64,000 bases of DNA from a virus (IMGVR_UViG_3300037042_004723:96001-160000), one strand, 5' to 3'. Shown: positions 603 through 2,148, numbered from the stretch's first letter. Translations and numbers: made by a program. Notes: generated by a model not told the origin, from the sequence alone.

Positions 603-1106
603 ATGTTTAAGTCTCTCATCTCCGAGTGCCTCGCCTACCTCTCCGAAGCAGGCGAGGAGAACCAGCCCGTCAAGGCGCCCAGGAAGCACAAGCATGATCG
701 AGCCGCCGAGCGGACTGGTCACCTCTTGAACACACCACTTTCGAGCATGTCTCGCAGGAAGATGCTCAAGACGATCCCCCACCTGCACCACCACTTCGAG
801 AAGGGGCACGGCAAGGGCGAGGGAGACTACCGAACGGTAGACCTGGATGACCTGAATACCCTTAGCAAGCATGCTGAGCAGATCTCCAACGACGCGAATG
901 CAATCATGCGGATGCCTGGACCGGCGCACCACCTGGCTGGTCACCTCTGCAAGCATGTTGCGAGCGCTCACGAGCGGATGAGCAAGTACTGGACTGACAA
1001 CAGTGACAACGAGTCCGCCGAGCTTCACGGAAGCGAGAGCGCCAAGTATGGCGACATGGCCAAGCACCATCACAAGGTTTCCAAGCGCCACGGGTACGGT
1101 TACTAG
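603..1106 (+). CDS. His-rich hypothetical protein with the same N-terminal leader
   Basis: 167 aa, 19 His; N-terminus MFKSLISECLAYLSEA; GAGGAAA upstream. Confidence 0.75.
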   Translation: MFKSLISECLAYLSEAGEENQPVKAPRKHKHDRAAERTGHLLNTPLSSMSRRKMLKTIPHLHHHFEKGHGKGEGDYRTVDLDDLNTLSKHAEQISNDANAIMRMPGPAHHLAGHLCKHVASAHERMSKYWTDNSDNESAELHGSESAKYGDMAKHHHKVSKRHGYGY

Positions 1107-1179
1107 TCCGCCGAGATGGACTTGAACCAGCAACCTATCGCTTATAGGGCAGCCGCTATATCCATTGAGCTATGGGATC
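1104..1179 (-). pseudogene. Chimeric tRNA-like gene, anticodon TAT
   Basis: GATCCCA-TA-GCTC-AATGGATA-TAGC-G-GCTGC-CCTATAA-GCGAT-AGGTT-GCTGG-TTCAAGT-CCATC-TCGGCGG-A-CTA. tRNA spacing and T loop are intact, but the acceptor stem does not pair and the anticodon stem pairs poorly. Confidence 0.7.
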
Positions 1180-1183
1180 AGAA

Positions 1184-1436
1184 AGGTGACTCTCCACGTC
1201 CGAAGTGTTTATCGGCCGCTGGCTTGCGCCAACCATGCCCGGTCGACCAAGCCTTGCGGCTCACCGACTCCGGGATCTACCCTCGCCTGGTAAAGAGTCT
1301 AAAAAGAGGGGCCGCCGCCCCGGATGTTTAATGTGCGCGGGACCCTAGGTTCGACCGACGCAAGCGCTTGCGCTGCTATTGCGTGAGAAGTGCTCGATGC
1401 TGTTTTGGATGATAACCATCGGACTCCGGCTCACCT
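1184..1436 (-). ncRNA. Candidate structured non-coding RNA (~250 nt), family not recognised
   Basis: ORF-free gap closed by nested end-to-end helices (AGGTGA/TCACCT, GTCCGA/TCGGAC, TTATC/GATAA). Internal hairpins GAGCC-GCAA-GGCTT, GTTGGC-GCAA-GCCAGC and GGGGC-GGCG-GCCCC. Same strand as the tRNAs. Confidence 0.55.
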
Positions 1437-1442
1437 AAAATG

Positions 1443-1715
1443 TCAGGCCTCTGCGGTTCCGATCGGAATCTGGAAGGAGAGTCCCTCCCCTTCCAGGAAT
1501 CTCGCGTGGAGGCGGTTGATCAGCTGGTCGAAGGTGAAGCTGTCATCTGACGAGCCAACGTGCGTGTGGTCCTCGCCGATGTAGAGGGTGATGGCATTCC
1601 CTCCCCAGTCTGGCCCGAACGAGACAACTGGAGCCGTTGGATCTTTGCCGGCTGCGGCATCGCAGAGCCGGACAATCTCTTTCAGTATCTCTTCGCATTT
1701 CTCAGCTGTCGTCAT
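1443..1715 (-). CDS. Hypothetical protein (90 aa)
   Basis: ATG at 1715 (MTTAEKCEE...). The track start at 1742 lies inside tRNA-Glu and was trimmed. Confidence 0.7.
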   Translation of the reverse strand: MTTAEKCEEILKEIVRLCDAAAGKDPTAPVVSFGPDWGGNAITLYIGEDHTHVGSSDDSFTFDQLINRLHARFLEGEGLSFQIPIGTAEA

Positions 1716-1717
1716 CG

Positions 1718-1790
1718 TGACCCCGGTGAGAATTGAACTCAACGTCTTCGCTGTGAAAGAGCGACGTACTAACCATTATACGACGGGGCC
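1718..1790 (-). tRNA. tRNA-Glu (TTC)
   Basis: GGCCCCG/CGGGGTC acceptor, D stem GTAT/GTAC, anticodon arm TCGCT-CTTTCAC-AGCGA, T loop TTCAATT; one T-stem mismatch; no encoded CCA. Confidence 0.88.
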
Positions 1791-1802
1791 GTGATTGTCA
1801 CG

Positions 1803-1873
1803 AGCGTACCGAGGGAGTTCAACCGAGGTCGATCGCTTACAAGGCGATCATTCCGCCACCGAACTACTCCACA
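1803..1873 (-). pseudogene. Chimeric tRNA-like gene, anticodon TGT (Thr)
   Basis: Good D arm (GTTC/GAAT) and perfect anticodon arm ATCGC-CTTGTAA-GCGAT. T stem CTCGG/CCCTC and acceptor TGTGGAG/GGTACGC do not pair. Confidence 0.7.
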
Positions 1874-1897
1874 GTAAGATCGTGTATATTCAAGTCT

Positions 1898-2074
1898 ATG
1901 AACGACAAGCGAAAGCAAAGCCTCTACTTCCCAGAAGACATGCTGGCGGAGGTCCAGGCCGAAGCCACTCGCCTGGACCGCTCGCTCTCTTGGGTGGTCC
2001 AGCGCGCCTGGACCCTCTCAAGGGAGAAGCTGAAGGAGATCCCTTCAATCAACCAGCCAACAGAGACAGACTAG
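1898..2074 (+). CDS. MXAN_4361/MXAN_4362-family (TIGR04563-like) small ribbon-helix-helix-type protein
   Basis: Not in the ORF track. 58 aa: MNDKRKQSLYFPEDMLAEVQAEATRLDRSLSWVVQRAWTLSREKLKEIPSINQPTETD. The KQSLYFPE...DRSLSWVVQ.AW signature was recognised from memory as a myxobacterial family. Confidence 0.8.
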   Translation: MNDKRKQSLYFPEDMLAEVQAEATRLDRSLSWVVQRAWTLSREKLKEIPSINQPTETD

Positions 2075-2148
2075 AGCCTTCGGCCGGATTTGAACCTACG
2101 ACCTCCGGGTTATGAGCCCGACGAGCTACCAGGCTGCTCTATTCCGCA
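2072..2148 (-). pseudogene. Chimeric initiator tRNA-fMet (CAT) with a foreign 3' end
   Basis: GAGCAGCCTGGTAGCTCGTCGGGCTCATAACCCGGAGGTC is nearly identical to bacterial tRNA-fMet. After TTCAAATCC the sequence GGC-CGAAGGC-T-CTA cannot pair with 5' TGCGGAA. Confidence 0.8.

Follow-up and report, generated by a model that had tools for sequence, protein, structure and literature searches.

Three hybrid tRNA pseudogenes as very probable deletion scars in the shrunken tRNA array of an uncultured T4-like phage

Near the start of IMGVR_UViG_3300037042_004723:96001-160000, a 64,000-nucleotide (nt) stretch of viral DNA that we refer to as the window (G000:C1:96001-160000), three sequences resemble transfer RNA (tRNA) genes on the minus strand, at positions 2148-2072 (element 1), 1873-1803 (element 2) and 1179-1104 (element 3). 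We conclude with considerable confidence that these elements are hybrid tRNA pseudogenes, the joints left by deletions inside a formerly large tRNA array. Elements 1 and 3 each combine parts of two different tRNA genes. Their parents are collinear and identically oriented in the arrays of related phages, the DNA that separates the parents there is missing here, and no reciprocal products are found. Element 2 appears to be a more complicated hybrid, whose parentage we infer from local alignments and from its place in the array.

A reduced tRNA array in a large T4-like phage

The source record is a single virus sequence of 197,279 bp with 57% G+C. Its genes include those for a major capsid protein of the gp23 type and a prohead protease of the T4 type, which identify the source as a large T4-like phage known from metagenomes alone; the best cultured match of the capsid protein is less than 37% identical. 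The tRNA genes of the phage are all encoded on the minus strand, within genome positions 90,889-98,149. ARAGORN and the Rfam tRNA model agree on seven normal genes (Arg-CCT, Arg-TCT, Leu-TAG, Leu-TAA, Val-TAC, Met-CAT and Glu-TTC), which the model scores at 44-67 bits, and an Rfam tRNA search of the whole genome returns these seven, the three elements and one 13-bit fragment.

A preliminary description of the window had reported three chimeric tRNA genes, and Rfam matches confirm a tRNA-like sequence at each of the three places. Element 1 matches the model at 2141-2083 with 33.3 bits, in a local alignment to model positions 8-63, element 3 at 1173-1114 with 21.8 bits, and element 2 at 1873-1806 with 19.0 bits. 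When the minus strand is read, arm spacing is normal and the D and anticodon arms are good in all three. Their acceptor strands, which the description had quoted correctly, do not pair in any element. The description was inaccurate in placing the loss of pairing at the third T-stem pair and beyond in every case, since the failing T-stem pairs differ by element: the third pair alone (A.G) in element 1, the second alone (C.T) in element 3, and three pairs in element 2. To see whether any of the genes was split or interrupted, we also searched both immediate flanks for complements of the orphan acceptor strands; the matches covered only 5-6 of 7 positions, which is the chance level.

A search of IMG/VR with the capsid protein returned 75 related loci. 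Five long relatives, with capsid proteins 89-93% identical, carry 45-53 Rfam tRNA matches each, apart from one contig that ends inside its array; in the four with complete arrays, ARAGORN finds 40-47 tRNA genes over 21-28 kb. We used the closest relative, G001, and two further ones, G002 and G003, to compare gene order. In ascending direction, the conserved order of the relatives begins with Arg-CCT, Arg-TCT, several Leu genes, Val-TAC, Ile-GAT, Leu-CAG, Pro-TGG, Met and Ile-TAT, continues with three Arg genes, Thr-GGT, Val-GAC, Glu-TTC, Cys, Glu-CTC, two Asn genes, Thr-TGT, Gln-TTG and Thr-CGT, and then runs through about 16 more tRNA genes, the last of which is the initiator Met gene (fMet).

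The seven tRNA genes and three elements of the present genome follow this order exactly. From Arg(CCT) to fMet, its array measures 7.3 kb, compared with 21.3 kb in G001 and 27.6 kb in G003. BLAST blocks shared with the relatives are collinear and are separated by gaps of 4.1 kb, about 1.8 kb and about 0.3 kb. More distant relatives have from about 1 to about 46 tRNA candidates, and the size of the array is therefore labile within this clade of uncultured T4-like phages.

Element 1 joins an initiator tRNA-Met to a tRNA-Thr

Element 1 (2148-2072, minus) consists of an initiator tRNA-Met(CAT) front (2148-2097), a crossover interval in the T loop (2096-2086) and a tRNA-Thr(CGT) tail (2085-2072), the last comprising the 3' strands of the T stem and the acceptor stem, a discriminator T and CTA. 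This division is evident from two BLAST matches to G001. Window positions 2086-4287 match G001 region 24919-27157, from the initiator Met gene onward, and window positions 1876-2096 match G001 region 20565-20788 (85% identity, E value 4e-65), which holds a 58-amino-acid (aa) open reading frame (ORF) and the last 23 nt of tRNA-Thr(CGT). The two matches overlap in the window by 11 nt (2086-2096), which form the T-loop motif GGTTCAAATCC, and they lie 4,131 bp apart in G001.

A three-way alignment places the switch between parents at the same point. From the 5' strand through the 5' strand of the T stem, element 1 agrees with G001 fMet at 44 of 53 positions and with G001 Thr(CGT) at 21 of 52. The T loop fits both genes (11/11 and 10/11, respectively), and the tail with its trailer then reverses the preference, with 8 of 30 positions shared with fMet and 23 of 30 with Thr(CGT). 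Furthermore, Thr(CGT) gives a score of 20 with the tail, compared with 10 for the runner-up among approximately 144 tRNAs. The overlap of the BLAST matches, the switch in identity and the tail score together indicate that element 1 is an fMet front joined to a Thr(CGT) tail inside the T loop. The 4.1 kb and 16 tRNA genes that separate the two parents in G001 are absent here. ARAGORN reports a 94-nt tRNA-Met at 2056-2149, a candidate that we rejected as a forced fold in which the true T arm is treated as a variable arm.

Element 3 joins a tRNA-Arg to a tRNA-Ile within the D arm

In element 3 (1179-1104, minus), tRNA-Arg(ACG) supplies the 5' flank, the 5' acceptor strand and the D loop (1179 to approximately 1159), and the remainder, from the anticodon arm to the discriminator A and CTA, is native tRNA-Ile(TAT). 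The segment from the anticodon arm to the end agrees with G002 Ile(TAT) at 45 of 51 positions and with Arg(ACG) at 25 of 51. Intact Ile(TAT) genes end in GTGGTGG-A-CTAG in G002 and in CGGGCGG-A in G001; the TCGGCGG-A-CTAG of element 3 resembles both, and its 3' end is thus native. Upstream of this segment the affinity changes. The D arm matches G002 Arg(ACG) at 18 of 19 positions and has a GGA indel in common with it, the flank and 5' strand agree with Arg at 7 of 13 positions and with Ile at 3 of 13, and the top three local matches of the 5' part are the Arg(ACG) genes of G002, G003 and G001.

The adjacent non-coding flank at 1192-1305 (minus) provides a further marker of position. Over 114 nt it is 74.6% identical to G001 region 17213-17317, immediately upstream of the first tRNA-Arg(ACG) of G001 (region 17123-17196), and it marks the upstream limit of the deletion behind element 3. 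Taken together, the alignments and this flank match indicate that, in element 3, Arg(ACG) passes into Ile(TAT) inside the D arm and that about 0.3 kb holding the other Arg genes has been lost. Element 3 has also diverged from its orthologues by three point changes that disrupt pairing in the D, anticodon and T stems, a pattern that fits an unconstrained pseudogene.

Element 2 is probably a hybrid with two joints

Element 2 (1873-1803, minus) seems to combine a Gln-like 5' acceptor strand and D arm, a Thr-like anticodon arm with anticodon TGT, and Cys-like 3' strands of the T stem and acceptor stem. The best local match of its 5' part is G001 Gln(CTG), with a score of 18 (median 7, standard deviation 1.8), and that of its 3' part is G001 Cys, also with a score of 18 (median 8, standard deviation 2); the anticodon-loop region matches G002 Thr(TGT) at 11 of 11 positions. 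These matches are collinear, in the right orientation, with the Gln(TTG)-Thr(TGT)-Asn-Asn-Glu(CTC)-Cys-Glu(TTC) series of the relatives. Moreover, element 2 is situated between the 58-aa ORF, which neighbors Gln-TTG in G001, and tRNA-Glu(TTC), which neighbors Cys. Local alignment scores and collinearity thus make it somewhat probable that element 2 is a two-joint hybrid of several parents, and the T loop, proposed earlier as the switch point, may well hold its second joint.

According to the preliminary description, all three elements switch at the T loop to a foreign 3' end, with the T-loop motif as the microhomology at the crossover. This account holds for element 1, whose crossover falls within GGTTCAAATCC, and for element 2 it is plausible. 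For element 3 it fails, because the joint is in the D arm and the foreign part is the 5' strand. The underlying claim that the elements are chimeric tRNA genes is borne out for elements 1 and 3 by the two-parent alignments.

Deletion within the array would account for the hybrids

The most probable history begins with an ancestor that would have carried several dozen tRNA genes (an array of roughly 45-50) on one strand and in fixed order, as relatives still do. Recombination between short stretches common to different tRNA genes would have fused one gene to another lying downstream, with the tRNA register preserved and the intervening DNA lost. For element 1, the shared stretch would be the T-loop motif of 11 nt; for element 3, it would be the TAGCTCAATG...AGCG D arm, which is nearly identical in both parents. 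The crossover intervals are approximately 7-11 nt, and the simplest mechanism, presumably carried out by the recombination and replication machinery of the phage itself, is microhomology-driven unequal recombination.

Compared with G001, element 1 stands for 18 genes (initiator Met to Thr-CGT, 4.1 kb), element 2 for six genes (Gln-TTG to Cys, about 1.8 kb), probably lost via two joints, and element 3 for four genes (Arg-ACG to Ile-TAT, about 0.3 kb). Together, the three joints replace about 28 genes of a 44-gene array. In each hybrid, the two acceptor strands derive from different genes and so are unable to pair; the hybrid products should therefore be neither processed nor charged. We presume that the elements are non-functional relics.

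Three anomalies are in this way explained without a new mechanism, and an annotation is corrected, since the tRNA-Met reported by ARAGORN is replaced by a hybrid. The genome also offers a snapshot of a phage shedding a near-complete tRNA set, in which three in-register joints account for the loss of about 28 genes. With tRNA counts in the clade ranging from about 1 to about 50, the case should be useful to work on why phages gain and lose tRNAs.

Alternative explanations and points of doubt

Several observations weigh against the deletion hypothesis or limit it. The element 2 segment matches are each weak, and none is significant alone (E values of 0.05-3). The 5' part of this element is closer to G001 Gln(CTG) than to the syntenic Gln(TTG), and its middle also resembles other tRNAs (Ile-GAT and Met). 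Orthologous tRNAs in this phage group share only 57-70% identity. The actual parent genes of this lineage are therefore unavailable, and this divergence explains the weak parent signal for element 2. In addition, the D and anticodon stems of elements 1 and 2 are perfect, which may leave room for a recent origin or for retention by selection.

One competing proposal is that a T-loop tyrosine recombinase made the joints, either by excision between directly repeated T loops or by cassette exchange, the latter having been suggested in the preliminary description. The crossover of element 1 does fall exactly in the T loop, and the genome encodes one protein of the Phage_integrase family (genome 21,832-22,371). 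However, the joint of element 3 is in the D arm and its 3' end is native, and therefore a T-loop-specific enzyme does not explain the whole set. The integrase gene, the sole PF00589 match in the genome, lies about 75 kb from the cluster, and no integrase is adjacent to the elements. We found no att-like direct repeats flanking the elements in window positions 1-2600, where a search for repeats of the tRNA 3' segment gave a single match near a tRNA end (13/14, estimated to be at chance level). The Rfam tRNA search of the 197-kb genome also detected no reciprocal chimera. Furthermore, the ORFs beside the joints are the ancestral neighbors of the parent tRNAs in G001 and G002. Since the parents of elements 1 and 3 are identically oriented, collinear neighbors whose intervening DNA is gone, the data argue for deletion within the array rather than cassette exchange, and we regard the involvement of such a recombinase as very unlikely. 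The integrase-family gene itself (minus strand, outside the window) is a short, 200-aa open frame with a Phage_integrase score of 81 bits.

A different possibility is that the hybrids are retained as uncharged tRNA-like RNAs, for instance to decoy host anticodon nucleases or to signal RNA processing. Elements 1 and 2 would suit such a role, with fully paired D and anticodon stems and canonical anticodon loops. In contrast, element 3 has stem-breaking substitutions in three arms, and the hybrids were seen in no other genome in searches of viral and metagenome contigs, which included an exact-match query of viral contigs with the element 1 joint that returned no further record. Acceptor-stem pairing is needed for normal end processing and stability of tRNAs, and the unpaired acceptor stems of the hybrids should block both. 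To our knowledge, the anti-nuclease tRNAs of phages are intact and chargeable. A decoy role is unnecessary to account for the hybrids, and retention for any of these purposes strikes us as highly improbable. The same low estimate applies to the bolder ideas that hybrids with intact initiator-Met and Thr anticodon arms are kept as decoy RNAs or that a recombinase resizes the array at T loops in a programmed manner.

Gradual decay of ordinary tRNA genes by point mutation, with no recombination, might be considered instead, given that the parentage of element 2 is weak and that relatives also hold decayed tRNA-like genes. An example of the latter occurs at G001:49368-49432 (minus), where a gene orthologous to a G002 tRNA of 74 nt (anticodon AGA, without a long arm) is broken by a 5-nt insertion in the 5' acceptor strand and has a changed anticodon loop. 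Decay is refuted for elements 1 and 3, which switch sharply between parent genes and whose flanks match different places in the array, and it is scarcely credible as an account of the set.

Finally, because the record was assembled from a metagenome and tRNA arrays contain repeats, an assembler might have jumped between tRNA genes at shared k-mers. The stretches that the parents share are only approximately 7-11 nt long, and usual assembler k-mer sizes are far above this. A separately assembled Logan contig (SRR11849211_1585883, 5,871 nt) is 100% identical over genome positions 94,443-98,127, a span of 3.7 kb that includes element 3, element 2 and the joint of element 1, and the flanks are collinear with the relatives throughout. 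The Logan contig may come from the same sample as the IMG record, which tempers its value as support for the deletion hypothesis. Even so, we assign an assembly artefact almost no chance.

Neighboring genes and other features of the region

Two ORFs on the plus strand converge on elements 1 and 3. The conserved 58-aa ORF (1898-2074) ends in a TAG stop that is the complement of the CTA following the tRNA-Thr(CGT) tail. Its G001 homologue, within the region of 85% nucleotide identity (20565-20788), sits between Gln(TTG) and Thr(CGT), and the intact Thr(CGT) of G001 likewise ends in ...T CTAG. The 167-aa ORF (603-1106) has the same arrangement with the CTA that follows the Ile(TAT) tail. Window positions 682-1041 match G001 region 16303-16668 and G002 region 16647-16941, which adjoin Ile(TAT), and the intact Ile(TAT) of G002 also ends in ...A CTAG. 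Judging from these positions, both ORFs are ancestral neighbors of the parent tRNAs. We considered whether the convergent ORFs could be inserted cassettes that overwrote tRNA 3' ends; this idea was ruled out, as the same ORFs abut the intact parents in G001 and G002.

Some tRNA genes in this phage group carry CTA in place of CCA after the discriminator (here at 1104-1106 and 2072-2074, and in G001 Thr(CGT) and G002 Ile(TAT)). The occurrence of CTA in intact orthologues of the relatives shows that this feature is ancestral and not a result of chimerism.

No Pfam match was obtained for the small ORFs around the elements. Searches of viral contigs with the 99-aa and 167-aa ORFs yielded no relatives, and those with a 206-aa neighboring protein yielded G001 only; metagenome contigs gave G001 and two distant short contigs for the 206-aa protein. 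The 167-aa ORF and another plus-strand ORF at 264-581 have similar N-terminal segments of about 15 residues and unrelated bodies, and the latter has nucleotide-level relatives in cyanophages and roseophages. Downstream of the 99-aa ORF, which is on the minus strand, a GC-rich hairpin followed by a T run occupies 1308-1321 (minus). Apart from this terminator-like hairpin (1321-1308), a promoter and terminator scan of positions 1-2500 remained at background level. The hairpin falls within the stretch 1184-1436, in which Rfam reported nothing, although part of it, the flank at 1192-1305, is shared with G001 at 75% identity. Much farther along, a 1,463-aa ORF (39669-44060, plus) contains two stretches each of intein splicing and LAGLIDADG domains and is apparently an intein-bearing structural or packaging gene.

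Two of the intact tRNA genes lie close to the elements. The tRNA-Glu(TTC) gene (1717-1790, minus; ARAGORN, Rfam 56.4 bits) lies 12 nt downstream of element 2 and keeps its ancestral slot, as judged by synteny with the relatives. It is 57-69% identical to the same-slot Glu(TTC) genes of relatives and 80.6% identical to a tRNA-Glu of Synechococcus phage S-CREM1. Turnover of the tRNA genes in these arrays, by divergence or by replacement, is rapid. The tRNA-Met(CAT) gene (101-175, minus; ARAGORN, Rfam 50.5 bits) is the next tRNA downstream of element 3, matching the G001 gene order.

Another sequence of tRNA shape lies at positions 18-92 (minus) and was missed by both ARAGORN and Rfam in this genome. 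Its anticodon is CAT, its 7-bp acceptor stem pairs perfectly and its T loop is unusual. It is 81-91% identical to its counterparts in G001 and G002, of which the G001 copy scores 23.6 bits, and is probably a real, atypical and conserved tRNA. About 1 kb before the start of the window (genome 94,918-95,058), the tRNA-Leu(TAG) and tRNA-Leu(TAA) genes predicted by ARAGORN, each 75-76 nt long and without a long variable arm, overlap by 10 nt. A similar overlap, of 3-4 nt, occurs in relatives between Leu(CAA) and an adjacent Leu-type gene.

Comparison with known systems

Tyrosine integrase sites in tRNA genes reportedly fall into anticodon-loop, T-loop and 3'-end classes, a division credited to Williams in 2002. 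The T loop as the crossover point of element 1 recalls the second of these classes. The elements differ from integrase sites in that no integrase is adjacent, no duplicated tRNA 3' fragment flanks them and the tRNA is not restored. Moreover, both halves derive from neighboring genes of one array.

Another parallel is provided by phage T4, in which recombination at microhomologies of 6-10 bp yields large deletions that, under experimental selection and at non-tRNA loci, compensate for segmental amplifications under headful packaging (Srikant, Guegler and Laub, eLife 2022, PMC9391042). The crossover intervals of approximately 7-11 nt described here are of similar size. The present loci are tRNA genes, in contrast to those of the T4 study, and any compensation under headful packaging for the roughly 14 kb lost from the array of this phage is conjecture on our part.

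A precedent for the hybrids themselves also comes from T4. Hybrid tRNA genes are said to have been described by McClain and Foss in 1984 in laboratory-isolated deletion mutants affecting the eight-gene tRNA cluster. For natural hybrid tRNA genes in phage arrays, our searches of the literature brought up no specific report. The laboratory mutants and the present genome both involve a T4-type cluster in which the front of one gene is fused in register to the back of another, the genes between are lost, and the joint lies at a sequence common to both genes. Unlike the laboratory mutants, the present genome carries three natural joints that replace about 28 of 44 genes, one of them in the T loop and one in the D arm. 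It is therefore a natural and unusually extensive example of a long-known kind of event.

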